This document shows positions 33,215-49,258 of a stretch of DNA of 64,000 bases, piece after piece; position 1 is the first letter of the stretch, and the number at the start of each line of letters is the position of its first letter. The notes under the pieces were generated by a model. That model made no database searches. It was not told the DNA's origin and was given only the letters and a program-made list of their open reading frames with translations. Source of the stretch: Gemmatimonadales bacterium (GTDB lineage Bacteria > Gemmatimonadota > Gemmatimonadetes > Gemmatimonadales > GWC2-71-9); assembly GCA_035519565.1 (NCBI GenBank), contig DATIWD010000081.1:579-64578 (forward strand), given 5' to 3'. The translations under genes and the position numbers were made by a program.

Positions 33215-33283
33215 GAGTTCGCTGCCAAAATGCGGCGCCGAGAATATGGTCGCTAGTCTACCGACGCGGAATGGTTGGCCGTG

Positions 33284-35458
<2,175 letters not shown>

Positions 35459-35482
35459 GGCATTGAGTACCTCACCTCGGGG

Positions 35483-37645
35483 TTAGAGCCGGGCCAGCAG
35501 AGACTGAAATCTGGGGTCGTCACGGAGGGAGGCCAGATCGGAGTCGTTCTCCAGCCATTCCCGATGCCCGAATCCGTTCCGGATCGCCTTGTCGAGCAGG
35601 GCCAGCGCCTCATCCTTCTGCCCGCCCAGGGCGTGGCAACAGGCCACGTTGTAGAGCTGGCTGGAATCCTCCGGATCCAGAGCCAGCCCCCGGCGGGCCC
35701 AGTCCAGCGCCTGATCGCGCTTGCCCTGCTCCATCAGCGCCGAGGCTCCCAACACCAGGGCCCGGATGTCTTCCGGGTTGGTCTCCAGGTGCCGCTCCGC
35801 GAGGGCGATTCCGCGGCGCTGCGCGGCCGAGCCTTCCTCGGTACGGCCCAACGAGCGAAGGTCCTGGACCATCAACAGCGGAGCCTGGTAGTCCTCCGGG
35901 CGCACCCGTGCGGCTTCGGTGTACTCCCGGACCGCCGCCTCATGCTTCCCCTGCTGGAACAATGCCCGCCCGTAGAAGTAGTGCGGCTCGTACAGGTTGG
36001 GGCCCAGTCGGATCGCGCGCTCGTAGTTGGCATTGGCTTCCTCGTAGCGCTGACTCAGCGAGAGGACCAGCGCCCGCGAGGTGATGGCCTCCGGCATCTC
36101 GGGGTTGAGCTCGAGCGCCTTCTGACTGTAGCTGTCGGCTTGCTCCAGGTTCGACCGGCTGGCGTCCCAATACATGTACAGCACCGAGCAGCAGTCGGCC
36201 GCCCCGGCGTATCCTTGGGCATAACCCGGATCGATCTCGATGGCCCGCTCGAACATCCGACGGGCGAACTGGATGCCGGTCCGGCGGAACTGATGGAAGA
36301 ACTGCCGGCCCCGGAGGTAGAACTCGTAGGCCCGGACGTCCGCGGTGGGGGCCTTCTCGATGGCCCGCTTCTCGTCCTCGCTCAGGACCACGCGGAGCGC
36401 CTTGACGATGTTTTCGGAGATCTCGTCCTGGATCGCGAAGACGTCCTCCAACTCGCGATCGTAGCGCTCCGACCAGAGGTGATAGCCGTCGGCGACGTTG
36501 ACCAGCTGGGCGGTGACCCGGAGCTTCTTTCCCGCCTTTCGGACGCTCCCTTCGAGCACCGTCGCCACCTTGAGCTTCCGACCGATCTCCCCGATGTCCT
36601 CGTTCTTCCCCTTGAAGGCAAAGGCCGAGGTCCGCGAGGCCACTCGCAGCGCCTGAATCTTGGTCAGGGCATTGATGATCTCCTCGGCGATGCCGTCCGT
36701 GAAGTATTCGTTCTCAGGATCGGCGCTCATGTTGACGAACGGCAGCACCGCGATCGACTTGGCCGTGGGCACCGGAGTGACCACCAGCGTCGCATTGGGT
36801 GGCGTCACGATCCGCGCGGAACCCAGCGCCTGCCCCAGCAGCGCCGCGGTCGCGAATCGTTCGTGGGGCTCTCGCGCCAGCGTCTTGGTCACCACTTCGT
36901 CCAGTTCGGGCGACACCCCGCTTCTCCGGGCCTTGAGCGACGGCACCGGCTCGGTGAAGCGCTTGCTCATGAGCGCCTGAACCGTGCTCCCGGTGAACGG
37001 GGCGCTGCCGGCCAGCATTTCGTAGAGCACGCATCCCAGGCTGTAGATGTCGCTCCGGCCGTCGGGCTCTCCTTCTCCCGACGCCTGCTCCGGGCTCATG
37101 TAGGTCGGGGTTCCGACCGCCAGGCCCGTCTGAGTCAGGCTCTCGCTCCCCGCCGCGCTCACCGCCTTGGCGATCCCGAAATCGGTCACGATCGCCTCGC
37201 CTTCGTGGAGCATCACGTTCTCGGGCTTGATGTCCCGATGCACCACGCCCTGGCGGTGGGCGTAGTCGAGCGCCGCCGCCACATCCCGCGCGATCCTGAC
37301 CGCGTCATCCACGGGAAGCTGCTTGTCCTTGTTGAGCCGGTCTCGCAGCGATTCACCTTCCACGAAAGGCATCACGTAGTAGAGCAGCCCGTCGGCCCGC
37401 CCCGAGTCGTAGAGAGGAAGGATGTGAGGGTGCTGAAGGCGCGCCGCGATCTGGATCTCACGCAGGAATCGCTCGGGGCCCAGGGTGGCGGCCAGCTCGG
37501 GGTGCAGCACCTTGAGCGCCACGCGCCGGTCGTGCTTGATGTCCCGGGCCAGGAAGACGGTGGCCATTCCTCCTCGGCCGACCTCGCGGTCGAGGAGATA
37601 GCGGTCGGTCAGACTGGATTGCAGGCGCTGCAGCAGGTCGGCCAT
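35483..37645 (-). CDS. Ser/Thr protein kinase K6: paralogue of K5 (kinase + 'AVLPF' module + TPR)
   Basis: It has the same architecture as K5 and is colinear with it over its whole length (KSIAVLPFVNMSADPENEYFTDGIAEEIINALTK...). It lies 24 nt upstream of K5. Confidence 0.9.
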   Translation of the reverse strand: MADLLQRLQSSLTDRYLLDREVGRGGMATVFLARDIKHDRRVALKVLHPELAATLGPERFLREIQIAARLQHPHILPLYDSGRADGLLYYVMPFVEGESLRDRLNKDKQLPVDDAVRIARDVAAALDYAHRQGVVHRDIKPENVMLHEGEAIVTDFGIAKAVSAAGSESLTQTGLAVGTPTYMSPEQASGEGEPDGRSDIYSLGCVLYEMLAGSAPFTGSTVQALMSKRFTEPVPSLKARRSGVSPELDEVVTKTLAREPHERFATAALLGQALGSARIVTPPNATLVVTPVPTAKSIAVLPFVNMSADPENEYFTDGIAEEIINALTKIQALRVASRTSAFAFKGKNEDIGEIGRKLKVATVLEGSVRKAGKKLRVTAQLVNVADGYHLWSERYDRELEDVFAIQDEISENIVKALRVVLSEDEKRAIEKAPTADVRAYEFYLRGRQFFHQFRRTGIQFARRMFERAIEIDPGYAQGYAGAADCCSVLYMYWDASRSNLEQADSYSQKALELNPEMPEAITSRALVLSLSQRYEEANANYERAIRLGPNLYEPHYFYGRALFQQGKHEAAVREYTEAARVRPEDYQAPLLMVQDLRSLGRTEEGSAAQRRGIALAERHLETNPEDIRALVLGASALMEQGKRDQALDWARRGLALDPEDSSQLYNVACCHALGGQKDEALALLDKAIRNGFGHREWLENDSDLASLRDDPRFQSLLARL

Positions 37646-37650
37646 TGGCG

Positions 37651-39372
37651 TTACGGTCCGGCCGCCTTCATGGCTGCCGTGCTATCTCCCAGCATCAGCC
37701 ACTCGACGATCGAGAGCGGCAGGCTGCCGTAGCTGATCAGTTGGTCGTGGAACGCCCCCAGGCGGAAATTGGCGCCCTCCTGATCGCGATACTTCCCGAG
37801 CAGCCGCATGATCTGCCACTTGCCGACCATGTAAGTGATCTTCTGGGTGGGACTGGACGCCGCTCCTGCCGCCTCTCCCTCCGCCGCTTCCTTGTCGAGT
37901 CCCCCCGCTTCCATGAAGTACTTTACCGCCTGGTCGAAGGTCCAGCGCCCGGTGTGCAGGTTCACATCCACGCCGATCCGGGCCCCGCGGTAGCGCGAGA
38001 GCCGGAGCACCTGGCCGTGCGCGGCCGAGTTCTCGGGGTAGAAGCCGCTCCGGAGCAGCATCTCCTCGCCGTAGAGCGCCCAGCCCTCGATGAAGATTCC
38101 GTCGTTCTGCTGTCGCCGGATCTCGTCGCTCACGTGGTTGGCGATCGAGATCTGGAGAAAGTGCCCGGGGATCCCTTCGTGCCCCAGGATCGGCCGCGGG
38201 TCTTCGATGGCCGCCCGGATGTAGAAATTGCCGCTCTTGGGGTTGTAGGTAGGGATGAAGAAGAAGCCGCTGGGGTCGCTGTCGTAGAGCCCGGGCGGAT
38301 TCATGAAGCCGCCGGGGCTGGTCGGCTTGAATGCCTCTGGCAGCTGGCGAATCAGGAAGGGACCAATGTAGGAGGGAATGGTCACCAGCTCGTTCGCCTT
38401 CAGGAATCCCACGATGTCGTTGAGGCGGCTCTGGTACGCCGCCAGGAACTCTTCCTGGTCCCTGGGGATGTTGGGGCTGCGGGCTGGGTCCGGCGAGGCG
38501 AGGCTGGGGTCGCTCAGCATCGCCTCGAGCCCCCGATTCCGTGCCAGTTCGGCCTCGCCCAGCATGGCCACCTGCTCGGCATCGACCGGCAGCAGGTACC
38601 AGTGTTTGATCAGGTAGTTGTAGTTCTTCTCACCCATCGGGCTCCAGGCCACCATGCGGGGGAGCCTGGCCTCCAGCCAATCGGCAAATCCGTGGAGGGC
38701 GCGTATCGCACCGTCCCGCGCCTTGACCAGCGCCGCCTGCTCTTCCGGACTCAGGCTGTCCGCCAGAGTCATCAGGCTGGTGTTGAAGAGATCGTCCCCC
38801 GAGCGGGCCGCATCGATGGCGAGCTGAGCGTAGAGCTTGACCGGTTTGGTGAGATTGACCTTGCCCTGCTCCAGGAGCGCCGGCATCCGCCGCAACCTGG
38901 CCGTGGCGGCCAGCGCCCGGGTCCGATGCGGGGCGTACTCCTTCTTGAGCAGGCTGAAGATGGCGTTACTGCACTCGCCCACGTAGGTCTGGGGATCCGA
39001 TTCCTCGGGGAAGAGCACGCGGCCGAAAAACGCGACTCCCTCGAGCTGCGAACGGAACAACATGAGATCGATCCGATCGTCGCGGGGCCAACCCTTCGTA
39101 CTCATCGCCTTGACCCGCGCCAGCAGCTGCTCGACGTGCGCCCGACGAGCCCGCACCGCGCTCATGCTGTAGTCGGCCAGCCGATCGTCCCACATGTGCA
39201 GACCCTGATCGCTGGAGCTCACCGGGTAGCTCTGGTCGCGCCAGGCGTAATAACGAACGGCCAGCGCACGCAGCGTGTCCGGAGAGGCCGCCGGGGTGCG
39301 GGCCTGTGCCGCCAGGCCGCCGGTCCCGACGACCGAGACCATGGCCCATGCCAGGAGTGGTCCCTTCAGCAT
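37651..39372 (-). CDS. Secreted DUF885-family protein
   Basis: It has a signal peptide (LLAWAMVSVVGTGGLAAQA) and the HEGIPGHFLQ block I associate with DUF885. Its stop lies 5 nt before the K6 start. Confidence 0.75.
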   Translation of the reverse strand: MLKGPLLAWAMVSVVGTGGLAAQARTPAASPDTLRALAVRYYAWRDQSYPVSSSDQGLHMWDDRLADYSMSAVRARRAHVEQLLARVKAMSTKGWPRDDRIDLMLFRSQLEGVAFFGRVLFPEESDPQTYVGECSNAIFSLLKKEYAPHRTRALAATARLRRMPALLEQGKVNLTKPVKLYAQLAIDAARSGDDLFNTSLMTLADSLSPEEQAALVKARDGAIRALHGFADWLEARLPRMVAWSPMGEKNYNYLIKHWYLLPVDAEQVAMLGEAELARNRGLEAMLSDPSLASPDPARSPNIPRDQEEFLAAYQSRLNDIVGFLKANELVTIPSYIGPFLIRQLPEAFKPTSPGGFMNPPGLYDSDPSGFFFIPTYNPKSGNFYIRAAIEDPRPILGHEGIPGHFLQISIANHVSDEIRRQQNDGIFIEGWALYGEEMLLRSGFYPENSAAHGQVLRLSRYRGARIGVDVNLHTGRWTFDQAVKYFMEAGGLDKEAAEGEAAGAASSPTQKITYMVGKWQIMRLLGKYRDQEGANFRLGAFHDQLISYGSLPLSIVEWLMLGDSTAAMKAAGP

Positions 39373-39474
39373 CGATGTCTCCAGAAGTGCCGACTGCGGT
39401 CGGCTTCGGGGGCTTGGAGCGCGGGGTTTCAGGCCGTCAAGAATGGCGAGGACGGGCCCGGTTCGCTACCAGGG

Positions 39475-41043
39475 TCAGGGACCCGCCAGGAGGCGACGTA
39501 CTTCTTCCAGTTCGGGCAGGCCGGGATCGGCCTGGTGCCAGATCTCCTGAAGATCCCGGATGGCCGACTGGGCGGCCTTGGTATCACCGGCGCCGGCGGC
39601 GGCGCGGGCCAGGCCGATCAGTGAGCGCGCTCTCCGCGGGGCCCCCTGCAGCGCCCGCTCGAACTCGATCTCCGCCTCGCCCGGGCGCTGCATCCCCAGG
39701 AGCAACTCGCCCAGCAACTCATGGGAGGGCTTGATCCAGGTAGGGGGACCGAAATCGACCGGGATCGTCTCTTCGAGGGCAATCGCCTGTCGCACCAGTG
39801 CCACCGCCGTGTCGCCGTGGCCGGCTCCCGCCTCGAGGGACGCGCGCAGTTGCGAGGAGAGAATCGCCGCGACTTGCCTGCTATCGTCCTCGCCTGGACC
39901 CACCTCCGCCTGCCTCAGGCTGTCGAGGCCGGTCACCGCCTTCTCCGCCGCGCCCCGATCCCCCCGCTTGAGTGCCGCCAGGCCCAGGACATATCGGTCG
40001 CAAACCAGTGGAACGCTCGGCCCGTCGTCGAGGTCGATGGTCCAGTCCGCCACCGGACTGGTCCAGGCCTCGGTGTTGACCAGGTAATGCGCCCGCATCC
40101 AGGCCAGGGCATGGCGCCTCGGTCGTGACCCTCCCTCACCCAGATTGGCCCGGACCCGCTCCAGCAGCCTGGTGGCTTCCACATAGCGACCCTGCTGCAA
40201 CAGCCCATAGTCGAGCCACGCCGTGTAGTGTCCCGGCACTTCCGCAGTGGCCTTCACCGCAATCGCGTTCTGTGAAACCACCTGGTCCCACATGCCGAGC
40301 GCCACGAAGATGTGGGTGGTCATGTGCTGGGCGTGGGCCGCATCGGGCGCGATCCCCGAATAGGCACGAGCCGCCGGGAGCCCCAGTGGCGCATGGACCG
40401 GATCGTCAAAGGCGTGAATCAGGTAGTGCGCGGCGCCGGGATGGTTGGGGTTGACCCGGAACACGCTGTCGGCGATCGCTGCCGCGCGCATGTACGTCGG
40501 CACGTTTCGAATTCCCTGACTCAGCCCCTCGAGCGCCAGCGCGTAGAACACCTTGGCCTCGAGATCCTTGGGGTACTTGCGGGCCACTTCTGCCATCACT
40601 GTCGCATAGGCGGTGTCGCGGACCGGCTTGGAGCCGGTCCCGTAGAGGGCCTCTACCGCCGACAGGTAGTCCTTCTCCCTGGCAGTGGGGGCCCGCTTCT
40701 GGCGCGCCTCCGGCGTCGGTCCCAGTCGAGCCAGGGTGGCGCGCGCCGAGACCGAGTCCTGTTCGTTCCAGATCGGATGGGTGTAGCTCATGGCCTCGCC
40801 CCAGTAGGCCATGGCGAAGCCCGAATCCAGTGCCTGGGCCTTCTTGAAGGCCTTGATCGCCGACTCGTACTCGAAGCTGTGCAGGTACAGCACGCCCTGG
40901 ATGAATTGTGCCTGCGCGGCCCCCTTGGCCGAGGTGGGGAAACTGATGGTGCCCAGGCGCGGAGGCTGCTGGGCCGTGGCCGTCGAGGGGAGCGCCACCA
41001 GCAGGGCGGCGAGCAGGGCGTGTCGAATCGGAGACCCGGTCAT
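39475..41043 (-). CDS. Secreted TPR-like protein with conserved His motifs
   Basis: It has a signal peptide (LLAALLVALPSTATAQ) and helical repeats. HYLIHAFDD and HMTTHIFV motifs are present. Its start overlaps the acyltransferase stop (4 nt). Confidence 0.65.
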   Translation of the reverse strand: MTGSPIRHALLAALLVALPSTATAQQPPRLGTISFPTSAKGAAQAQFIQGVLYLHSFEYESAIKAFKKAQALDSGFAMAYWGEAMSYTHPIWNEQDSVSARATLARLGPTPEARQKRAPTAREKDYLSAVEALYGTGSKPVRDTAYATVMAEVARKYPKDLEAKVFYALALEGLSQGIRNVPTYMRAAAIADSVFRVNPNHPGAAHYLIHAFDDPVHAPLGLPAARAYSGIAPDAAHAQHMTTHIFVALGMWDQVVSQNAIAVKATAEVPGHYTAWLDYGLLQQGRYVEATRLLERVRANLGEGGSRPRRHALAWMRAHYLVNTEAWTSPVADWTIDLDDGPSVPLVCDRYVLGLAALKRGDRGAAEKAVTGLDSLRQAEVGPGEDDSRQVAAILSSQLRASLEAGAGHGDTAVALVRQAIALEETIPVDFGPPTWIKPSHELLGELLLGMQRPGEAEIEFERALQGAPRRARSLIGLARAAAGAGDTKAAQSAIRDLQEIWHQADPGLPELEEVRRLLAGP

Positions 41044-42551
41044 CGTGATTCCTTTTGACGCATGGGGACCGCTCGCTCCGCGGTCATGATGTCCATCTCG
41101 TCCCGGCGCGCCAGCCGGGGCAGAGTGGGATCCCGCTCTCCAGCCGGCGTGAAGGTGACCGAGACCGCCTCCGGCAACAGATGGGCGATGGAGTTGGCGT
41201 AGTACTCCAGGAGCGGCCGTTGAGCGGGAAGGATAACGTACTCGGTTCCCTGTTCCACCAGGATCCGCCGCATCCGGAACATGCGCCAGGCGCGGTCCCA
41301 GACTTCGTCGACCGCCAGGTCGCGGCGCACCACCCGCGCGTTGAACTCGGTCAATCGGTCCCGCAGCTCATCGATCCGCTCCAGCAAACGGGCCCTGGGT
41401 ACCACGCTGGTATTGAAGGAAAGCAGCGCGGCCGAACAGAGCGGCACCGGCGTCACCGGGATCACCTGGCCGATCCGCTCCAGGGTCAGCTCCGCCAATT
41501 GCTGCACGTGCGGGAGGCGCTGGTCCTTGGGCATCTGCAGCAGGTCGGAAGGTTGAGTCGCCAGCCAGGCCCGGACCGAGACCGGCGTTCCCAGGCTCAC
41601 CGCCACCCGTCCATAGCGCCGGAGCCGCCCCGTGAAAAACCTGAGGAGGTTGGACCACAGATAGGCTGCGACGCCTCCGAGCTGCCGCCAGCGGGAGAGT
41701 GGCTTGACCCCGATCACACGCTCCCGGATCAGAGAGCGATCCTCCAGTACCCGGTCGTAATTGATCCCCACCGGGATCAGCCAGATGTCATGGGCGAAGG
41801 TAGGGTCGTTCATGGTGCGGAGGATGTAGTCGATGAGCCCGATCTTCGGCGGTCGCAGCGCCCCGTCCCGGGAGAGGCCACCCTCCGGAAAGATCCCCTG
41901 GGTCACCCCGTTCCGGGTGATCAGCTGCACATAGCGCTCGAGCACCGCGTGATAGAGCGGCTCGCGATAGCGGCGGCGGATGAAGTAGCTGCCGAAGCTC
42001 TTGAACACGTACTCCAGTGGCCAGACGCGCGCCCACTCACCCACCGCGTAGCTGATGCTCACCACCCGGGCGAGCACGTAGGCCACGACCACGTAGTCGG
42101 CGTTGCTCCGGTGGTTCATGAGGTAGACCACCATGTCCTCGCGAGGGACACGGCCCAGTGCCTCCCGGTCCTGGTACTCGATCGAGGCCTTGTAGAGCAG
42201 GTTGATGAGGAAGCGACTCAGGTTGTAGCCGATCCGGTAGTAGGAGAGCACGTTGAAGAAGGGGACGATCTCGTCGATGTACTCGTTGACCAGGCGACGT
42301 ACCTCGCCGTCGGTCATCGGATGCTCGCGCTGGTGCTGCGCCATCGCCTCGAGCACCAGGGGATCCTGGAGGAGCTGCTCCCGGATGATGTCCCGCTTCA
42401 CCAGCTTGTAGCGGTCCAGGCGGGCCTGGAACTGGTGGATCGCTCGGAGGGCGGAGCGGCGCAGCCTCTCTTGCAACGCGACGGCGAGGGCCGCCGCCAG
42501 CACCAGCCCTGCCAGGGCGATCCCCGCGATCCACCAGACCCGTTCGTTCAT
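41040..42551 (-). CDS. PlsB/PlsC-like glycerolipid acyltransferase with N-terminal TM anchor
   Basis: It has an N-terminal anchor (VWWIAGIALAGLVLAAALAVAL), an H(X)4D motif (NHRSNADY) and FPEGGLSRDG. There are 4-nt overlaps at both ends. Confidence 0.8.
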   Translation of the reverse strand: MNERVWWIAGIALAGLVLAAALAVALQERLRRSALRAIHQFQARLDRYKLVKRDIIREQLLQDPLVLEAMAQHQREHPMTDGEVRRLVNEYIDEIVPFFNVLSYYRIGYNLSRFLINLLYKASIEYQDREALGRVPREDMVVYLMNHRSNADYVVVAYVLARVVSISYAVGEWARVWPLEYVFKSFGSYFIRRRYREPLYHAVLERYVQLITRNGVTQGIFPEGGLSRDGALRPPKIGLIDYILRTMNDPTFAHDIWLIPVGINYDRVLEDRSLIRERVIGVKPLSRWRQLGGVAAYLWSNLLRFFTGRLRRYGRVAVSLGTPVSVRAWLATQPSDLLQMPKDQRLPHVQQLAELTLERIGQVIPVTPVPLCSAALLSFNTSVVPRARLLERIDELRDRLTEFNARVVRRDLAVDEVWDRAWRMFRMRRILVEQGTEYVILPAQRPLLEYYANSIAHLLPEAVSVTFTPAGERDPTLPRLARRDEMDIMTAERAVPMRQKESR

Positions 42552-43606
42552 GCCGGTGCGCTGGGGGGGGTGAGCACCCCGGGGTGGCCCTCCAGCTTGG
42601 CTTGTTGATAGGCCATCCCCTCGAGGCGGATGACCCGCTCGCGAATCGGCGGATGGGATCCGAAGACGTCTCCGACCACGCCCGGTCGTTCCGACGCGGG
42701 GCGCCCCAACGCGTCCACAATACAGAGATGAGCGGCGCCGTGGGTGATCGTGGTAGTGGGTCCGGTGGCCCCATCCAGCTTTTCGAGGGCACTCGCCAGC
42801 GCCATCGGGTTGCGGGTGAACTGCGCGCCGGTCGCATCGGCCAGGAATTCGCGCTTCCGGCTCACCGCCATGGCCAGCAGCTGGGAGAGGATCGGTGCGA
42901 CCACCAGCGAGAGCAGCCAGGCCACCAGAACGATCAACGCGAGCGGATTACCCTTGCGATCCCCTCCGCTCCGGCCGCCACCACTCGAGCTACCGCTCCT
43001 CACATAGGCCCCACCGCGGAGCATCCGGCCCATTCCGTCCGACATCAGCGCGATCGCCCCCACCATCGCGGCCAGCAGGGTCATCAACCGGGTATCGAGG
43101 TTTCTCACGTGGGCCATTTCGTGGGCAACCACACCCTGCAGCTCGTCCCGGTTGAGGGTTCGAAGCAGACCCTCGGTTACCGCGATGCTGGCGTGCTGGG
43201 GGTCGATCCCGGTGGCGAACGCGTTGGGATCGGAGTCGGGCACGATCCAGATGCGCGGACGCGGCAGACCCGAGGCGACCGCCATCTCTTCCACCACGTT
43301 GACCAGCTGCTGCTGGGCCGGGTCAACCGCCTCGATGATTTCCCAGGCCCCGGTGGCCCAGAGCACCCGGCCCGCGCCGTAGCGCCAGGAATACCAGCAG
43401 AGGCCGGTCGCAAATGAGGTGGTGAGGAGGCCGATCCAGGGAATGATGTGATGATAGGCTTCGGGTGGGGCGCCTTCGGTTTGCAGATAGAAAGCCCAGT
43501 CGCCGCCGAAGCCAACCCAGGCGAAGAGCAGGATGAAGCCGGCGAGCAGCCAGAAGGAGCGGCGGCGATTGGACTCTTGTTGTGCGAAGAGATTCGAATC
43601 GCTCAC
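42548..43606 (-). CDS. M48-family (HtpX-like) membrane zinc metallopeptidase
   Basis: It has the HEXXH motif in VVAHEMAHVRNLD, four hydrophobic segments, and a downstream REFLADA (third-ligand Glu region). Confidence 0.85.
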   Translation of the reverse strand: MSDSNLFAQQESNRRRSFWLLAGFILLFAWVGFGGDWAFYLQTEGAPPEAYHHIIPWIGLLTTSFATGLCWYSWRYGAGRVLWATGAWEIIEAVDPAQQQLVNVVEEMAVASGLPRPRIWIVPDSDPNAFATGIDPQHASIAVTEGLLRTLNRDELQGVVAHEMAHVRNLDTRLMTLLAAMVGAIALMSDGMGRMLRGGAYVRSGSSSGGGRSGGDRKGNPLALIVLVAWLLSLVVAPILSQLLAMAVSRKREFLADATGAQFTRNPMALASALEKLDGATGPTTTITHGAAHLCIVDALGRPASERPGVVGDVFGSHPPIRERVIRLEGMAYQQAKLEGHPGVLTPPSAPA

Positions 43607-44175
43607 GCCGGCGGCTTGTTCATCGACAGGTCGACCTGCGGCACCGCCCGCTCGCCGGCATCCTCGATCTCCCAGAGCTCGGCGGGGCTCGCCTTGGCCA
43701 GGCCGGCCAGCAGATTGGTCGGAAACTGCGCCTGCTTGGTGTTGTACTCGGTGGCCACGTCGTTATAGAACTGGCGGGCGAAACCGATCTTGTTTTCGGT
43801 GCTGGTGAGCTCTTCCTGCAGTTGCGCCACGTTCCCCGTGGCCTTCAGCTGAGGGTAGGCCTCGGTCAGGGCGAAGAACCGTCCCAACGCCTGGGTGAGC
43901 TCGCCTTCCGCTTGCGCTGTCGCCTTCACGCCCGTGGCACTCACCGCCTTGTTCCGAGCCGCGATCACCGCCTCGAGCGTGCTCTTCTCGAAATCCATCG
44001 CCCCTTTGACGGTGTTGACCAGATTGGGGATCAGGTCGTGGCGGCGCTTGAGCTGAACGTCGATCTGCTTCCAGCCGTTCACCACCTGATTCTTGAGGCC
44101 GATCAGGCGATTGTAGGCGCCCACCACCCACAAGGCCACCACCACGAGGACGACCAGGAAGATGATGCCGGACAT
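43603..44175 (-). CDS. lemA: LemA family protein
   Basis: It has an N-terminal anchor, then YNRLIGLKNQVVNGWKQIDVQLKRRHDLIPNLV and ARQFYNDVATEYN, a canonical LemA pattern. Confidence 0.88.
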   Translation of the reverse strand: MSGIIFLVVLVVVALWVVGAYNRLIGLKNQVVNGWKQIDVQLKRRHDLIPNLVNTVKGAMDFEKSTLEAVIAARNKAVSATGVKATAQAEGELTQALGRFFALTEAYPQLKATGNVAQLQEELTSTENKIGFARQFYNDVATEYNTKQAQFPTNLLAGLAKASPAELWEIEDAGERAVPQVDLSMNKPPA

Positions 44176-44190
44176 GGGATTCCTTCCGAG

Positions 44191-44883
44191 TTACGGGTGG
44201 GACGGGCTCCCCCGTGGCTCTTCCTCTCCCTCCGGGAGAAGACCGGCCAGGGCATGGCGGAACTGCGCGACCAGGGCCGAATCGTTGGTCGCACGATGAA
44301 AGAGAGGATGGCGCTCGTCCACCAGCAACTCCACCCCCGGGGCCAGCGGTACTCGACGGCAGATCTGGCCGGCCGGGTCTCGTGCGGCGCCCTCTGCGGC
44401 GCGCGTCACCCGCTGGAGGCGGCCCTGCAGCGCCCGCCCCACCTTCCCGCTCGGACCCCCCGGCCCCAGCGCGAGCGTCAGTCTCGAGGGCGCCGGGAGG
44501 GCGGCCCCGAGCGCGCCGGCGACCCGGCGCTCGACCACGTCTCCCGCCAGCCCCGCCAACTCCTTCACGATGGTCTCCAGGGTGGCGCCTTCCATCTGGC
44601 GGAGTTTGATGGCCAGCACCTGGAGCAGGTGGCGGTAACTGTAGATCGCGGCGGTGCCCCGTCCTTCGGGCGGGCTCACCAGTCCCCGGGTCACATAGAA
44701 CCGGATGGTCCGCTCGGTTGGACGGGCGCGGGCTGCGGCGTTGACCGGGAAGATCCCGGAAGCGTCGAGGATGGCTGAGGCAAGGGCCACCAGGTCCCGG
44801 AGGCGCCATGGGGCCAGCGCCGAATATTCCCGGAGCGTCCCGAGTGGATCAGCGGCGGAAGTCGGTGGCGCGGCCGTGGTCAC
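44191..44883 (-). CDS. MerR-like HTH protein
   Basis: TERTIRFYVTRGLVSPPEGRGTAAIYSYRHLLQVLAIKLRQ matches the MerR HTH/wing pattern (TIRYYxxxGLL...Y). The GTG start overlaps the receiver gene stop (GTGA at 44880-44883). Confidence 0.6.
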   Translation of the reverse strand: MTTAAPPTSAADPLGTLREYSALAPWRLRDLVALASAILDASGIFPVNAAARARPTERTIRFYVTRGLVSPPEGRGTAAIYSYRHLLQVLAIKLRQMEGATLETIVKELAGLAGDVVERRVAGALGAALPAPSRLTLALGPGGPSGKVGRALQGRLQRVTRAAEGAARDPAGQICRRVPLAPGVELLVDERHPLFHRATNDSALVAQFRHALAGLLPEGEEEPRGSPSHP

Positions 44884-45287
44884 TGGCCGCCGCCTGACGC
44901 TTCAAGGGGCGGGCGCCCGTGCTGCTCTATCACCGACGCCACGGTGTCCATCAACTCGTCGAGCTGGAACGGCTTCACCAATACCGGGCATCCCTGCAGC
45001 TCCTCCGGCCATTCGGACACCGCCAACCCCGGATCGCCCGACATGAAGACCAGCCGGCTTCGCAGGTTGGGCCAGCGTCTGATCAGCGCCAGGGCCAGGG
45101 CGGAGCCGGAAAGCTGCGGCAGGATCAGGTCCACCAGGATCGCGTCCACCGACAGGTCGGCCAGCACCGCGTAGGCCGATTCTCCGCTCGCCACGGTAAT
45201 CGCCTCGTAGCCGCTCCGCCGCAGCGCCCGCTCCAGGGCGCTCCGGATCTGCGGCTCGTCGTCGACCACCAGTACCCGGTAGGTCAT
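44880..45287 (-). CDS. Single-domain response regulator (CheY-like)
   Basis: ATG at 45287 gives MTYRVLVVDDEPQIR...ILVDLILPQLSG...VLVKPF. The 89 upstream codons of tracked ORF 44880..45554 overlap the AraC-like gene. There is an ATGA overlap at 45284-45287. Confidence 0.85.
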   Translation of the reverse strand: MTYRVLVVDDEPQIRSALERALRRSGYEAITVASGESAYAVLADLSVDAILVDLILPQLSGSALALALIRRWPNLRSRLVFMSGDPGLAVSEWPEELQGCPVLVKPFQLDELMDTVASVIEQHGRPPLEASGGGQ

Positions 45288-46027
45288 GACGCCGCCTGCT
45301 GGAGCGGGGGGAAGTAGCGGGTCACGACTTCCCGCATCGCGTCTTCCGGCGTAAGCGAGATCCGGAGCTCCCCGGCCGGCAGACCGAAGACCTCCTTGAA
45401 GTGCTGCTGAAGGGTCCGGGCCTTCCCGTAGCCCAGCTTCATCGCCACGTCCTCGATCGTGTAGCCCGGATCGAGCAGCAGCCGGTGGGCGTAGAGCAGG
45501 CGGGCCAGCATCAGCACGACCCGCGGCGAGGGGAGCTGGGAGCGCGCGCACCACCGGTCGAAGGTCCGGCGGTTGACTCCCGCTTGATGGGCCAGCTGGT
45601 CTACGGTCAGGTCGGCAGTGGGCTGGCTCAGCGCGCTCTCCAGGACCGCCCGCACCCGATCGGAGAGACCGTGGAGCGCGTCGGCCAGGCCGTTGATCAC
45701 CTGCCAGAGAGTCGAGCAGCTCAGCTCGTCCCGGAGCACGGCCCGGAGGGTGAGCGGATCGTCGTCGATCCGCGCGAAGATGGCCCGCCGGATTCCGGTC
45801 CGCCCCAATGTAAGGAGAATCCCCGCCATCGCCGGCACCAGCGTGGTATACAGCACCACTGGCAGCGAGGGGAATTGAATCCGCAGGCTTTCGATCTCCC
45901 GGGAGCGGGGCTGCCCGGTGAGCATCGGGTCAACGACCGCCAGGGCTACCGGCCGGCTCCGGATCACCTGAAACAAGTCGGCCCAGTCCGACACCTCCAA
46001 AAACACGTAGCGATCCGGCTCGAGCAT
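45284..46027 (-). CDS. AraC-family transcription regulator with receiver-like N-terminal domain
   Basis: The C-terminus has a double HTH (VDQLAHQAGVNRRTFDRW... and IEDVAMKLGYGKARTLQQHFKEVFG). The N-terminus looks CheY-shaped (ALAVVDPML...LPVVLYT). I prefer the ATG at 46027 (MLEPDRYVF). The ORF track starts at 46168, inside an AT-richer promoter-like stretch. Confidence 0.75.
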   Translation of the reverse strand: MLEPDRYVFLEVSDWADLFQVIRSRPVALAVVDPMLTGQPRSREIESLRIQFPSLPVVLYTTLVPAMAGILLTLGRTGIRRAIFARIDDDPLTLRAVLRDELSCSTLWQVINGLADALHGLSDRVRAVLESALSQPTADLTVDQLAHQAGVNRRTFDRWCARSQLPSPRVVLMLARLLYAHRLLLDPGYTIEDVAMKLGYGKARTLQQHFKEVFGLPAGELRISLTPEDAMREVVTRYFPPLQQAAS

Positions 46028-46087
46028 CCGGAGACGGTGGATTTGGGGGGCTGGCAACGCAGCCAAAACCTGAACTTGTCTCAATTG

Positions 46088-46116
46088 GGGCCTAAAATGT
46101 CCAAAAATGGGCCTAA
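46088..46116. promoter_or_regulatory. Direct repeat GGGCCTAA x2 spaced 21 bp in a divergent promoter; candidate AraC-type operator
   Basis: GGGCCTAA is at 46088-46095 and again at 46109-46116. They sit in the AT-richer gap between the AraC-like gene and the small lipoprotein gene. Confidence 0.3.
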
Positions 46117-46186
46117 CGACGCGCCTGGACTCGCCAGATGTTGGACTCCCGCCAATGCGGGTACACACTCATCAGGAGGCTGGTCC

Positions 46187-46318
46187 ATGTCACGCCGCCG
46201 TCAGATCATCGCACTTCTTCTCGTGACGCTTCCCCTGGTCGCCGCAGCCTGCACTGATCCGAGCGGCCCCAATCTCACTCCCAACTTCGAGCAGCAGGGG
46301 AGCGAGACCCATCACTAG
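46187..46318 (+). CDS. 43-aa putative lipoprotein
   Basis: A perfect AGGAGG (46174-46179) lies 7 nt before the ATG at 46187. The product is MSRRRQIIALLLVTLPLVAAAC|TDPSGPNLTPNFEQQGSETHH, with a signal peptide and a Cys at a lipobox-like position. It is embedded in tracked shadow ORF 45401..46318. Confidence 0.55.
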   Translation: MSRRRQIIALLLVTLPLVAAACTDPSGPNLTPNFEQQGSETHH

Positions 46319-47616
46319 GTAGTACCGGCCTGCTCGGCGTAACGCCGCAGGCCGGCCGCGACCTCGGCCAGTGCCGGCGTCTCCAACAACTCGACCCGTG
46401 CCGTTGGGGTCGGGGCTGCGACCGTCGGAGCCTCGTCGAGTCGCTCGAGTGTTCGCTCGATCCTGAAGTACCATTCGTTCAGCTGGTGACGCTCCGCGAG
46501 CGCCATGGCCTCGCGGAGCTCCCGGCGCGCCTGCGTCTGCTGCCCGAAGTGGGCCAGGCCCAGGCCCTGCTTGTATCGGAAGTCGACCGCCATCGAGGGC
46601 GGCATCTTGGCTTCGAAGCTCCGTGCCGCCTGGCGCCGGCGCTCGAAGGCGATCCGGTCCCCTTCAGCCGCCTCGAGCTCCATGAGCTCCACGGCCGCGT
46701 TGGCCTTCACGTTGAAGCTCGCCCGGGAGTCCAGCACGATCTCGAAGGCCTGACGCGCCACGTCGTTGACACCGAGCGCGCGGAGAGACACCGCCACGTC
46801 ACCAAGAGCCCGGCAGCGGGTCACGTAATCCGGGGCGTATTCGAAGGCCCGATACTGGGCGACCAGCGAGTCGAGCTGCTGCCCCTGCACCGCCAGAATC
46901 GCCCCCAGGTCGGCGTAGGCCCGGCCGAGCACCTCGGGAAGATCCAGGGGCGTCGCGTCGGCAATCACTCCATCCACCGCCAACCGCGCCGCCGGCAGAT
47001 TGCCCTGACCGCGCATCACATTCGCTCTGCCCAGCCGCGACAGCAGTACTGACCGCTCATCCCCCAGAACGCGAGCCGCCTGCTCGGCGGCGGAATAGGC
47101 GTCGTTCGCCCGGTTCCAGCGGGCCAGGCGCCGGTTGAGCCGGGCGATTTCGAGCGCCAACCGGGGGCTTTCCTCCAGTGGAACCGAGGCTCCGAAGGTG
47201 CGCGCGGCCTGGCTCACCAGGTCGAGTGCCTCTTCATAGCGGCCTTCGTGCTCCAGGTAGTAGGCGAAGGCGCTCAGGCTCATCCTGAGTGTCGCCGGCC
47301 GATTGGAGGGCGGGTGATTGAGCGCCCGCACCAGTCCGCGGAGGTGCTCGGAGTCCGGCAGATCGTCGGGAAGCTCGTCGAGATAGCGCCGAACCCCCTG
47401 CAGCTGCCACTGGAACGACTCCCGGTCCTCCTCGGTGCCGGGAAGCCGGTCCAGCCGGTCGATCAGCCGTTGCACCAGATATCCGGCCAGGCAGACGCGA
47501 CTCGAGGTTTCCCGACCTCGTTCCAGTTCTTCACGGGCGCGGTCAAGAAATGCGGCATGGCCCAACCAATCCTCGGGGCCTGCGGTCGACTCGATGAGTT
47601 GGCGGGGACTGTACAA
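46315..47616 (-). CDS. TPR-like repeat protein, unknown function
   Basis: 433 aa and all-helical, with repeated A..Y/A..A patterns (EALDLVSQAARTF, YAFEYAPDY, ALGDVAVSL). Its stop overlaps the lipoprotein stop (CTAG at 46315-46318). Confidence 0.6.
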   Translation of the reverse strand: MYSPRQLIESTAGPEDWLGHAAFLDRAREELERGRETSSRVCLAGYLVQRLIDRLDRLPGTEEDRESFQWQLQGVRRYLDELPDDLPDSEHLRGLVRALNHPPSNRPATLRMSLSAFAYYLEHEGRYEEALDLVSQAARTFGASVPLEESPRLALEIARLNRRLARWNRANDAYSAAEQAARVLGDERSVLLSRLGRANVMRGQGNLPAARLAVDGVIADATPLDLPEVLGRAYADLGAILAVQGQQLDSLVAQYRAFEYAPDYVTRCRALGDVAVSLRALGVNDVARQAFEIVLDSRASFNVKANAAVELMELEAAEGDRIAFERRRQAARSFEAKMPPSMAVDFRYKQGLGLAHFGQQTQARRELREAMALAERHQLNEWYFRIERTLERLDEAPTVAAPTPTARVELLETPALAEVAAGLRRYAEQAGTT

Positions 47617-47779
47617 GGGATCCTCTGGGTTCGATTCGAGGCCGTACCCGGGTGGACTGTCGCTAGTATGGCCTGAGGGTCACTGGTCGGCAAGGCCTGT
47701 GCCCCCAGCAGCGTCCTTCGGCTCCACTCCGCGCGAATGCGATACCGTAACCTGGGTCACAGCATCGCATTCTTGCCTC

Positions 47780-48208
47780 ATGTCGCGCGGCTTCAGTCTG
47801 CTCGAATTGCTCCTGATCCTGACCCTGGTGGGTATCCTTGCCGGGCTCGCCTACCCTCGTGCAGTGGACACCATCGATCGGGCGTCGGTCGAGCGCGCGA
47901 CCAGGGAGCTGGTGGCCGCGCACACCCGCGCCCGAATGAACGCCGTGGTGGAGAGTCGCATCGGCTTGTTGTACGTGAGCGGCGACTCCGTCGTCCTGAA
48001 GATGGTGATCGGTTCCGATACGGTGACTCGATGGCGCACACCGGGACCGGGTGCCCTAGGGATTTCCCTGAGTGGCCCCAGTCGGCCACTCCGGTTTCTC
48101 CCGACCGGCGTCACCTTCGGCGCATCCAACGCGACATTCGTGTTGTCGAGAGGCGGATGGAGCAGGCGAGTCGTGGTTTCGCGATGGGGCCGGGTCAGGG
48201 TCCAGTGA
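47780..48208 (+). CDS. Prepilin-type N-terminal cleavage/methylation domain protein (GspH/FimT-like pseudopilin)
   Basis: ATG at 47780 gives MSRGFSLLELLLILTLVGILAGLAYP, the class-III signal with the conserved Glu. The upstream 115 codons of tracked ORF 47435..48208 are non-coding-like. Confidence 0.8.
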   Translation: MSRGFSLLELLLILTLVGILAGLAYPRAVDTIDRASVERATRELVAAHTRARMNAVVESRIGLLYVSGDSVVLKMVIGSDTVTRWRTPGPGALGISLSGPSRPLRFLPTGVTFGASNATFVLSRGGWSRRVVVSRWGRVRVQ

Positions 48209-48232
48209 GCCCGCCGGCCGGACCCCCCATCC

Positions 48233-48811
48233 TCAGTGGGCGCCGGCCGAATCCGGACGGAAGTGCAAGTCGATGTGGACCTGGATGTCGGGATACATCT
48301 TGAGCACACCGAGAAACTTGGTGAGCCCCCCGATCTTGTAGTCCTTCAGGTTGAGCGGGAAATCGGAGTGGAGGTGGATCCCCTCGGGAAGGAACGCCAC
48401 CCACGCGGGCAGGTTCACCTGGCGGGAGACGCCGTGGATCTGGAACGTGCCGTGCATGGTGATGGTGGCGCTATCGGTGCTCTCCGCTCCCACCGTCACG
48501 CCCTCGAGATCGAAACGAATCGTCGGAAATTGCTCCGACTCCATCGACTTGTTCATGTCCCGGTCCCGGTGGTCGTTGCCGGTCTTGAGAGTCTTGACCG
48601 GCGTCTCCGCCCACCCCAGGACATCGGCCAGTCCGCCGCCGCCGGCGATCTCACCAGTCACCACCTGCGTGGCGCCGACGAAATCGCCCACCGAAGCGTG
48701 GCCGTCGAAGCTGAGGGTACCGGAATCCACCACGGCCCGGGGAATGGGTCGCTGCGCCTCGACACCGCTCGCCCCTGCCAGAAGCAGGGTGGCCCAAAGC
48801 AGAAGCCGCAT
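48233..48811 (-). CDS. YceI-family periplasmic protein
   Basis: It has a signal peptide (MRLLLWATLLLAGASGVEAQ), SFDGHASVGDF...TMHGTFQIHGVSRQVNLP, and a lipocalin-like strand pattern typical of YceI. Confidence 0.75.
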   Translation of the reverse strand: MRLLLWATLLLAGASGVEAQRPIPRAVVDSGTLSFDGHASVGDFVGATQVVTGEIAGGGGLADVLGWAETPVKTLKTGNDHRDRDMNKSMESEQFPTIRFDLEGVTVGAESTDSATITMHGTFQIHGVSRQVNLPAWVAFLPEGIHLHSDFPLNLKDYKIGGLTKFLGVLKMYPDIQVHIDLHFRPDSAGAH

Positions 48812-48832
48812 ACGGTTTCCCGGTCGCCTGTC

Positions 48833-49258
48833 TCAGGTCCCGCGGCGACCACGGGCGCGGCCATCGCTACCCAGACTGTACTTGCGGACCTTGGCCAGAA
48901 GCGTCGATCGGGCGATGCCAAGCAGCTGAGCGGTCCGGCGCTTGTTGCCGCCGGTGTACTCGAGAGCCCTGGCAATGTGGCGGCGCTCGGCGTCCTCCAG
49001 CGACTCGGGGGGGACCGGATCGCCCGGGGCCATGGCCTTGCGGAGCGCGCCCAAATCGAGGCCCGGGACCCCCAGGCCGAGGATCAGGACGTCCAGGCCG
49101 GGGACTTCCAGCGCGCGGACCGCCTCCCTGCCATCCGACACCTGAACCACCCGCTGCCCGGTCTCCCGGAGCACACCGGTGACGCGCTGAGCGCGCTTCG
49201 GATCATCGTCCATCAACAGGAAATGCGAAGCGCTCATGGGGACGAAGGTAATGGTCAA
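48833..49258 (-). CDS. Truncated receiver fragment fused directly to a Fis-type HTH (NtrC-like without the AAA+ core)
   Basis: LLMDDDP...[14 protein letters not shown] has Gly at the acceptor position. The C-terminus has [37 protein letters not shown], an HTH_8/Fis-type motif. The TTG start is preceded by AAGGAG. Confidence 0.7.

Follow-up and report, generated by a model that had tools for sequence, protein, structure and literature searches.

Genes for LemA proteins and HtpX-type M48 proteases have been described as neighbours in Firmicutes: in Streptococcus pneumoniae, lemA and htpX (SPD_1139/SPD_1138) are adjacent and co-regulated (PMC8546594). In Flavobacterium columnare, lemA is induced upon deletion of signal peptide peptidase A (PMC13236525). 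Here we describe a locus in a stretch of 64,000 nucleotides from a Gemmatimonadales bacterium (contig DATIWD010000081.1; the whole stretch is subsequently designated the window), in which a lemA gene likewise adjoins a gene for an HtpX-type M48 protease and overlaps with it by 4 nt. In contrast to the Firmicute pair, this locus adds a MerR-like regulator, usually a GPAT-type acyltransferase and often a cassette encoding a TPR protein, a small peptide, an AraC-type protein and a CheY-like protein. To our knowledge, neither the regulator nor the acyltransferase nor the cassette is part of the lemA-htpX pair of Firmicutes. A literature search of incomplete coverage returned no description of a MerR-like regulator, a coupled short GPAT-type acyltransferase or a TPR/peptide/AraC/CheY head together with lemA-htpX, in line with an earlier note on this DNA, made from the sequence alone, which had not recognised the composition as a described system. 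The lemA-htpX pair is already known, and the MerR-like regulator, the lipid acyltransferase and the peptide/TPR/AraC/CheY input are additions to it. With moderate confidence, we read the locus as a Gemmatimonadota-specific membrane-homeostasis operon composed of separable modules. This reading builds on observed gene content, motifs, junctions and synteny, from which we infer every activity and every regulatory link.

The single components also have described counterparts. HtpX of E. coli is a member of the heat-shock and Cpx (envelope-stress) regulons, and the B. subtilis htpX gene ykrL has an adjacent, divergently transcribed gene for a dedicated regulator, YkrK. The window protease is likewise an M48 membrane protease with an HEXXH motif and four transmembrane (TM) segments, and, as in B. 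subtilis, it has a dedicated regulator gene close by. However, the window protease stays below the cutoff for HtpX, and its regulator carries a MerR_1 domain and would be encoded in the same operon. PlsB-type enzymes have been described as typical of Gammaproteobacteria, with PlsX/PlsY in use elsewhere and so also in most Gram-positives (PMC6431249). With the PlsB/GPAT enzymes the window acyltransferase shares the Acyltransferase and GPAT_C domains and all four motifs, and its closest relatives of solved structure are GPATs (PDB 9vuq and 8e4y), but it comprises only ~500 aa instead of ~800 aa and possesses an N-terminal TM anchor.

The gene chain and its conservation

All seven minus-strand open reading frames (ORFs) that the earlier note had joined to a chain, from the AraC-like gene to the gene for a secreted TPR protein, were confirmed at the coordinates it gave (Table 1), and searches against Pfam and NCBIfam bore out its labels AraC, CheY-like, MerR-like, LemA, M48, acyltransferase and TPR. 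The five 4-nt overlaps and the single 15-nt gap of this chain were read from the sequence. ATGA overlaps join the AraC-like gene to the response regulator (RR) gene, the M48 gene to the acyltransferase gene and the latter to the secreted TPR gene; GTGA overlaps are found between the RR and MerR-like genes and between lemA and the M48 gene; and the 15-nt gap between the MerR-like gene and lemA holds the ribosome-binding site GGAAGGAA. Hence, 5 of the 6 chain junctions are -4 overlaps, compared with 3 of the ~33 remaining pairs of same-strand neighbours in the window (~9%, based on a rough gene call), and the chain overlaps are therefore not background. The GC content of the window is 66%, and its acyltransferase is identical to a protein annotated in a Gemmatimonadales MAG.

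For comparison, relatives were scanned with one genome per GTDB species, which yielded at least 592 relatives of the acyltransferase. The best 80 of these were retrieved with 10-kb flanks (locus labels L001 onward). Including loci seeded with the first gene of the head, designated TPR433 (L086-L091), loci of distant acyltransferase homologues and the locus of a sister species (L081), the whole comparison covered ~90 related genomes. Presence of genes was tallied by tblastn with the window proteins and counted over loci with sufficient flank. The 80 acyltransferase-seeded loci are labelled Gemmatimonadota, except for one bin labelled Acidimicrobiia (L049). The contig of this bin (CAXMUQ010000094.1, labelled 'uncultured Acidimicrobiia') has the Gemmatimonadota-type array in full, with protein identities of 51-75%, and is probably mis-binned.

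Indeed, the synteny of lemA, the M48 gene and the acyltransferase gene, for which the earlier note had proposed a neighbourhood search, recurs in these relatives. Upstream of the acyltransferase gene, the M48 gene was detected in 69 of 72 acyltransferase-seeded loci, lemA in 68 of 69 and the MerR-like gene, adjoining lemA, in 63 of 68. The MerR-like gene and the LemA-M48(HtpX-like) pair make up the core, which is present in nearly every related locus. The genes further upstream are found less often: CheY in 29/68, AraC in 27/63 and TPR433 in 27/55 loci.

In the junction tally of the relatives, in which start-codon choice favoured overlaps within 60 nt of the aligned start, the AraC-like and RR genes overlap in 25/27 cases and the RR and MerR-like genes in 25/29 (21 at -4), while -4 overlaps were scored for LemA-M48 in 33/70 and for M48-acyltransferase in 29/66 cases. 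The MerR-LemA junction is essentially always a gap, of 25-125 nt in 62/64 loci, and the 15-nt spacer of the window is the shortest among the loci compared. Therefore, the relatives display two tight trios, AraC-RR-MerR and LemA-M48-acyltransferase, which are joined by a spacer. Independent gene calls, i.e. the annotation of the source pipelines, were available for four loci. Those of L086, L089 and L090 have junctions of -4, -4, +29 to +76 and -4 from the AraC-like to the M48 gene, and that of L088 has -4, +10, +53 and +17, so that the AraC-RR overlap is called in 4/4 loci and the RR-MerR and LemA-M48 overlaps in 3/4 each. Gene order and overlaps are kept down to ~40-55% protein identity in dozens of species.

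The merR-lemA spacer of some relatives carries additional elements. In the clade L005-L022, there is a promoter-like TAGCCC-N17-TACACT, which overlaps with the stop codon of merR and is similar to the main TTGCCC-N17-CATACT element described below. In L030-L033, L039, L047, L051 and L055, the spacer contains a 9-bp GC hairpin (GGGGCGCAG-nnnn-CTGCGCCCC) with no T-run, which is absent from the window and may be an attenuator or an element of mRNA stability. Internal control points thus appear to exist in relatives, with none seen in the window. Given the constant merR-lemA gap with promoter-like boxes or a hairpin in some clades, the idea of a single transcript is therefore not secure.

Table 1. 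Features of the locus, in the order from the conserved promoter-like element to the last gene of the chain (positions refer to the window).
Feature	Position	Strand	Remarks
Conserved promoter-like element TTGCCG-N17-CATACTA	47664..47693	-	48 nt upstream of TPR433 start; sole copy in window
TPR433, all-helical TPR superhelix, first head gene	46315..47616	-	433 aa; syntenic in 27/55; absent from the list of the earlier note
43-aa exported peptide/lipoprotein precursor MSRRRQIIALLLVTLPLVAAAC-TDPSGPNLTPNFEQQGSETHH	46187..46318	+	Convergent with TPR433, divergent from AraC
Two direct repeats, 21-bp period	46077..46115	-	TAGGCCCATTTTTGGACA at 46115-46098, TAGGCCCCAATTGAGACA at 46094-46077; between peptide and AraC genes
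AraC/XylS-type regulator, non-canonical N-terminal domain	45284..46027	-	HTH_18; possible start TTG at 46066
Single-domain CheY-like response regulator (RR)	44880..45287	-	Response_reg
Divergent MerR-family regulator	44191..44883	-	MerR_1; phylum-specific N-terminal extension, C-terminal domain without recognised fold
LemA-family single-pass membrane protein	43603..44175	-	Pfam LemA
HtpX-like M48 zinc metalloprotease	42548..43606	-	Peptidase_M48, HEMAH, four hydrophobic segments
TM-anchored ~500-aa GPAT/PlsB-type acyltransferase	41040..42551	-	Acyltransferase and GPAT_C
Secreted TPR protein	39475..41043	-	Signal peptide, TPR_2/TPR_16 matches

Core proteins, acyltransferase and the optional head

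The MerR-like protein matches MerR_1 with 36 bits (cutoff 21.6), and Pfam listed MerR-type helix-turn-helix (HTH) families only; NCBIfam gave weak matches to SoxR, HspR and MerR, all far below the equivalog cutoffs. It has 1742 homologues, of which the best 120 are all from Gemmatimonadota (61-97% identity). Residues W155, C175 and H192 of the C-terminal domain are conserved, and the HTH region carries an unusual insertion. The structure model (pLDDT 76) retrieved MerR-family proteins as top fold matches throughout, yet these were weak (E of at least 0.07). LemA was assigned with 187.5 bits (Pfam PF04011, cutoff 26.2) and matches the LemA structure 2etd of the PDB at an E-value of 9e-32; it carries the N-terminal hydrophobic TM segment IIFLVVLVVVALWVVGA, and by the positive-inside rule its C-terminal domain would be cytoplasmic. 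The protease scores 104 bits with Peptidase_M48 (cutoff 20.3), and HEMAH is its zinc motif. The best HtpX model of NCBIfam, NF003425, gave 245.6 bits and thus less than the equivalog cutoff of 355. The protein is accordingly HtpX-like, but not a curated HtpX equivalog.

The acyltransferase, a protein of 503 aa, matches the Pfam families Acyltransferase (59.7 bits) and GPAT_C (89.8 bits). With PlsB it aligns at 149 bits over PlsB positions ~179-621 and stays far below the PlsB equivalog cutoff of 610-618. Its motifs HX4D, FxxR, EGG and P-x-x-N-Y-D (PV..NYD) are invariant in 20 sequences, the residues concerned being H147, D152, F190/R192/R193, E223-G225, P260 and N264-D266. Forms of ~500 aa with 30-47% identity exist outside this clade, one of them labelled Planctomycetota. 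The distant homologues reside next to FHA and HAD genes, a gene for a GpsA-like glycerol-3-phosphate dehydrogenase, genes for ribosomal protein S21 and FHA, or MaoC and acyl-CoA synthetase genes. Of these contexts, those with the GpsA-like and acyl-CoA synthetase genes would fit a role of the family in glycerolipid synthesis as GPAT. In one such locus (L083:4959-7416), the short GPAT-type gene directly follows the gene for the GpsA-like dehydrogenase.

The unit does not begin with the AraC-like gene at position 46027, as the earlier note had it, since a conserved promoter-like element, TPR433 and a peptide gene were found further upstream. The element TTGCCC-N17-CATACTAGC occurs in 28 distinct instances, and in ~1.3 Mb of fetched loci all matches of the pattern but one are at the conserved position. 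In loci devoid of the head, CTTGCCC-N17-CATACTAGC is located 26-48 nt before the MerR-like gene, with a divergent gene for a GspH-type pseudopilin upstream. In loci with TPR433, the element is found directly upstream of TPR433 instead. We regard it as the probable start of the transcription unit. As the same promoter precedes the MerR-like gene when the head is missing and TPR433 when it is present, the head seems to have been inserted between this fixed promoter and merR, or else to have been deleted there in other loci.

This sensory head is present in ~45%, i.e. about half, of the loci and lineages, and it varies in composition. Apart from loci in which the promoter is followed by the MerR-like gene alone, TPR433 may abut the MerR-like gene directly with no AraC, RR or peptide gene (L004, L023). 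The window type comprises TPR433, the peptide gene and the AraC-RR-MerR trio, and occurs also minus the peptide gene (L049, L059). In L077 and L078 the AraC-like gene is deleted, with the peptide gene and both direct repeats kept just upstream of CheY (L077:7190-7280, L078:7010-7100), which looks like a recent loss. Elsewhere the head is displaced by other genes (L043, L046, L050, L053, L062), and five loci possess LemA-M48-acyltransferase without the MerR-like gene. The modules are therefore separable. Of the three-component regulatory head that the earlier note had envisaged, the MerR-like protein turned out to be constant, whereas AraC and CheY are optional and belong to a larger head with TPR433, peptide gene, repeats and promoter. 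Likewise, the seven genes do not make up a single system, given that AraC and CheY are optional, the acyltransferase is dispensable and the secreted TPR gene is lineage-specific.

TPR433 belongs to a family of ~105 members, all from Gemmatimonadota and some with TPR_MalT matches. It lacks a signal peptide and is predicted to be cytoplasmic. An AF2 model (pLDDT 93) was compared by Foldseek, which retrieved LGN/Pins, designed consensus TPRs, NprR and Rap at E-values of about 1e-5 to 1e-4 and TM-scores of 0.45-0.6. For NprR and Rap the values are about 4e-5 to 4e-4 and 0.4-0.56, and LGN and the designed TPRs match equally well or better. Pfam detected no HTH in TPR433, and no sequence-level match to RNPP proteins in the PDB was obtained. 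As modelled, TPR433 would be a TPR superhelix with a peptide groove, by which membership in RNPP is not established.

The peptide gene, which the earlier note did not mention, has positional homologues in more than 30 loci. Its product starts with a signal of the Sec or lipoprotein type, which closes with a lipobox-like [AGS]-C (AAC); a variable linker leads from there to a motif conserved at the C-terminus. A conserved GGAGG Shine-Dalgarno sequence is located 5-7 nt before the ATG. Substitutions at codon positions 1, 2 and 3 amount to 98/81/229. This bias, together with the Shine-Dalgarno sequence, the signal peptide and the conserved motif, shows that the gene is coding; it was also called independently by the source pipelines in L081 and L086-L091. 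No Pfam or NCBIfam family was matched, the sub-threshold matches including several to signal-peptide regions of lipoprotein families. The C-terminal motif comes in two forms. Most relatives have a Cys-loop (CDxxNPxTC[HR] or CExQGxGGRxC), whereas the window and five relatives have a linear form ([FS]ExQG[SA]NN or NFEQQGSET); L063, L080 and L086 carry the motif in duplicate. The window copy, of the linear FExQGS form, lacks both loop cysteines. That it is a degenerate copy was considered and rejected, as L081, L086, L087, L089 and L091 share this linear motif of the [FS]ExQG[SA]NN type. Upstream of the Shine-Dalgarno sequence, AAGTTGG...N17-18...yCAAC boxes are conserved (window 46148-46183; L068:3782-3860 on the minus strand). 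An RNA hairpin formed by the GTTGG...CAAC boxes is not supported, RNAalifold finding 5 pairs and no compensatory change. Because there is no covariation, the boxes may be promoter sequences recognised by an alternative sigma factor and not a folded RNA. The peptide itself may be an extracellular signal, a sentinel of secretion stress or a plain small lipoprotein.

Between the peptide and AraC-like genes, the direct repeats follow the consensus TAGGGCrTTTTTGCGRCA, of which at least 14 loci have two copies at a 21-bp period, and in many loci they end few bases before the start codon of the AraC-like gene. They constitute a putative binding site of the AraC-type protein, and no further copies were detected elsewhere in the window and the fetched loci. 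The two window repeats share their deviations from the consensus, suggesting that the site is still maintained.

The AraC-like protein itself matches HTH_18 with 55.4 bits (cutoff 33.6). Its homologues start with MLVLAAVPD, ~20 codons upstream of the ATG chosen in the earlier note. At this position the window reads VQVLAALPA and provides no ATG or GTG but only the TTG at 46066, which may be the start. Thus, the gene was confirmed, and its start at 46027 is uncertain. The receiver-like N-terminus ascribed to it is not statistically supported: Pfam gave no match for the domain; it has conserved D33 and T61 but no acidic pair and no Lys; and alignment with CheY by hhalign, run with truncated as well as full-length homologues, was weak both times, with a probability of 12-14% and an E-value of about 0.002, although D33 was paired with the acceptor Asp. 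By contrast, the CheY-like protein is assigned to Response_reg with 56.7 bits, and D9, the acceptor D53 and K105 do not vary across 17 sequences, with S/T83 conserved as well.

A proposed membrane-homeostasis operon and its alternatives

A membrane-associated module of quality control and lipid acylation would be the most economical reading of this gene content, and the proposal of the earlier note to this effect fits the verified domains. LemA, protease and acyltransferase have N-terminal or internal TM segments, and the positive-inside rule predicts that their soluble parts face the cytoplasm. LemA and the HtpX-type protease would be translationally coupled and sit in the inner membrane, where both would remove membrane proteins that are misfolded or jammed, LemA serving the protease as a partner or adaptor. 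Through coupling of its gene to the protease gene, the acyltransferase would be made together with this quality control and would serve the acylation of phospholipids, be it de novo synthesis or re-acylation. The MerR-like protein would be the constant core regulator, with transcription probably starting from the TTGCCC-N17-CATACT promoter. In loci with a head, the AraC-type protein would most likely bind the repeats and control the divergent peptide gene as well as its own operon, and TPR433 and CheY would feed a signal into it. The LemA family is very widespread and a structure has been solved; the locus gives it a testable setting that would tie membrane-protein quality control to lipid supply. 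The short TM-anchored enzyme belongs to a branch of the PlsB/GPAT superfamily that is poorly characterised, and the lipid biosynthesis of the phylum is little studied.

Several points weigh against the membrane-homeostasis operon. The acyltransferase-seeded set is blind to LemA-M48 pairs without acyltransferase, and the operon structure is deduced from gene spacing. Within 37000-48500, a scan with the sigma-70 promoter consensus gave 0 promoters, which is uninformative for a GC-rich phylum, and a scan for terminators gave chance-level terminators only. No histidine kinase for the CheY-like protein was found in the cluster or among the conserved neighbours. With HspR-type MerR stress regulators, the MerR-like protein shares a winged-helix MerR_1 domain and the position at the head of a stress-type operon, but differences are seen as well. 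The spacer of the conserved promoter has 17 bp and not the 19-20 bp typical of MerR-activated promoters. No palindromic operator was identified in this spacer, its dyad symmetry being 0.424 compared with 0.392±0.018 after shuffling, with 32 of 500 shuffles reaching the observed value. A structure search with the C-terminal domain gave no match. As to the acyltransferase, its gene is absent after the M48 gene in 4/4 informative TPR433-seeded loci (L086-L089), the array of which is otherwise whole (divergent GspH, TPR433, peptide, AraC, RR, MerR, LemA, M48); two further TPR433-seeded loci are cut or poorly assembled. In 4/4 loci of distant homologues, the acyltransferase is unlinked to LemA/M48, so that its linkage to this pair is clade-specific. 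It thus appears to be a frequent, non-obligatory 3' member that is dispensable for the regulator-LemA-M48 unit, and it may be tied to the protease only loosely, or by position alone. Finally, we know of no demonstrated function of LemA in any organism.

Tentatively, and as a possibility only, the head could be a peptide-based sensory cassette of TPR433, peptide, AraC with its repeats and orphan CheY, which gates LemA-HtpX in a diderm phylum in response to a cell-cell signal or as a sentinel of secretion stress. If the cassette senses a peptide, this would be an unusual case of peptide-dependent regulation in a Gram-negative-type lineage, and LemA would gain a first regulatory and functional context. 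If it is merely a local regulator, a solid but ordinary phylum-specific stress operon would be left.

In the more specific version of cell-cell signalling, which we consider rather unlikely, the conserved C-terminal 7-10 residues of the processed peptide would be sensed by TPR433 in a Rap-Phr/RNPP-like manner to modulate CheY and/or AraC and thereby the operon. As in the RNPP/Rap-Phr systems of Firmicutes, the gene for a TPR superhelix protein has a small neighbour, the exported peptide product of which ends in a conserved motif. The small ORF provides a signal peptide, a variable linker and a motif of the CDxxNPxTC or [FC]ExQG[ST] type, it always adjoins TPR433 and AraC, and the duplication of the motif in L063, L080 and L086 is expected of a functional unit. 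Among bacterial proteins, NprR and Rap match the fold of TPR433 best, and the cassette encodes a single-domain receiver; Spo0F, the target of Rap, is a single-domain receiver as well. However, the fold likeness is generic, with eukaryotic LGN and designed TPRs equal or better at TM-scores of ~0.5, and TPR433 possesses neither an HTH nor a recognisable Rap N-terminal domain. In addition, the peptide gene lies on the opposite strand, the lipobox-like Cys makes a tethered lipoprotein possible, and the host is a diderm with no importer encoded nearby. TPR433 is moreover found with AraC but no peptide gene in L049 and L059, and with none of AraC, RR and peptide in L004 and L023.

Improbable, in our judgement, is that the peptide serves as a reporter of the Sec/lipoprotein pathway, the unexported pre-peptide being caught by TPR433 via its C-terminal motif to switch on LemA-HtpX. 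TPR433 has no signal peptide and the peptide has one, so that both would meet only upon failed export or re-import. The downstream genes encode a membrane quality-control protease and its partner, and HtpX belongs to the envelope-stress regulon in E. coli. In another bacterium of the FCB group, lemA is induced when signal-peptide clearance is impaired (PMC13236525). Yet such a sentinel is purely inferential, and we know of no precedent with this architecture. It explains the Cys-loop and linear variants and the duplicated motifs no better than signalling does, and the core operon lacks a head in about half of the lineages.

We also give little credence to a positional accident, in which the genes would form a tight co-directional array because the GC-rich genome is densely packed, the overlaps would stem from genome compaction instead of a common function, and the acyltransferase would be a housekeeping GPAT. 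The chain does reside within a ~25 kb co-directional minus-strand block, other loci have varying, unrelated genes after the acyltransferase (S51 peptidase, Kup, HD protein), and the acyltransferase is unlinked elsewhere. These facts are opposed by the preservation of order and overlaps across dozens of species at ~40-55% identity, by the background rate of -4 overlaps in the window of only ~9%, and by the recurrence of the lemA-htpX pairing in an unrelated phylum. Least of all do we expect that LemA-HtpX balances lipid synthesis through regulated proteolysis of the acyltransferase, in analogy to the control of LpxC by FtsH-LapB: the M48-acyltransferase overlap (-4 in 29/66 loci) and the predicted membrane anchoring of all three proteins with cytoplasmic domains would suit it, but there is no evidence of interaction, and since the acyltransferase is absent in 4/4 TPR433-seeded operons, the LemA-HtpX unit cannot exist for this purpose.

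Downstream region and flanking genes

None of the 80 related loci, of which 63 reach at least 1.7 kb past the acyltransferase gene, encodes a homologue of the secreted TPR protein, which the earlier note had counted as a member of the system. Beyond the window, the gene was detected only in the sister species locus L081, where the acyltransferase is 88% identical and the same 4-nt overlap is found. It thus appears to be a recent lineage-specific passenger outside the conserved system. At 37651-39372 on the minus strand, 102 nt after this gene, a DUF885 protein with a signal peptide and the motif HEGIPGH is encoded, which likewise had no match in the 80 loci and otherwise occurs only in L081. 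The genes downstream of the acyltransferase in other loci are those variable ones named above. Further along the ~25 kb co-directional block, Ser/Thr kinase genes follow at 30557-37645 (minus strand) with short gaps, namely two for kinases of ~720 aa and then an 885-aa gene. Of their counterparts in the sister locus, the one ~720-aa kinase scanned carries TPR repeats, and the counterpart of the 885-aa gene is of the Pkinase/Tricorn type.

Other identities of the locus were considered and rejected. An Rfam scan of 39000-48500 at E-values up to 1 gave no match. Models for anti-phage defence systems (PADLOC) matched none of eight proteins at E-values up to 0.001. A mobile element or defence island was dismissed because the flanks consist of conserved housekeeping-type genes (CSD, MGMT, HD, YceI, GspH) which keep their order across species. 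The gene for the GspH-type pseudopilin (N_methyl and GspH; 47780-48208, plus strand), divergent from TPR433, occupies a conserved position in 59 loci and faces the MerR-like gene where the head is absent. Immediately upstream, at 48233-49258 on the minus strand, a YceI-like protein and a 141-aa half-receiver/Fis-type HTH_8 protein are encoded; many loci have them as conserved neighbours, and in L089 and L091 they form a fusion.

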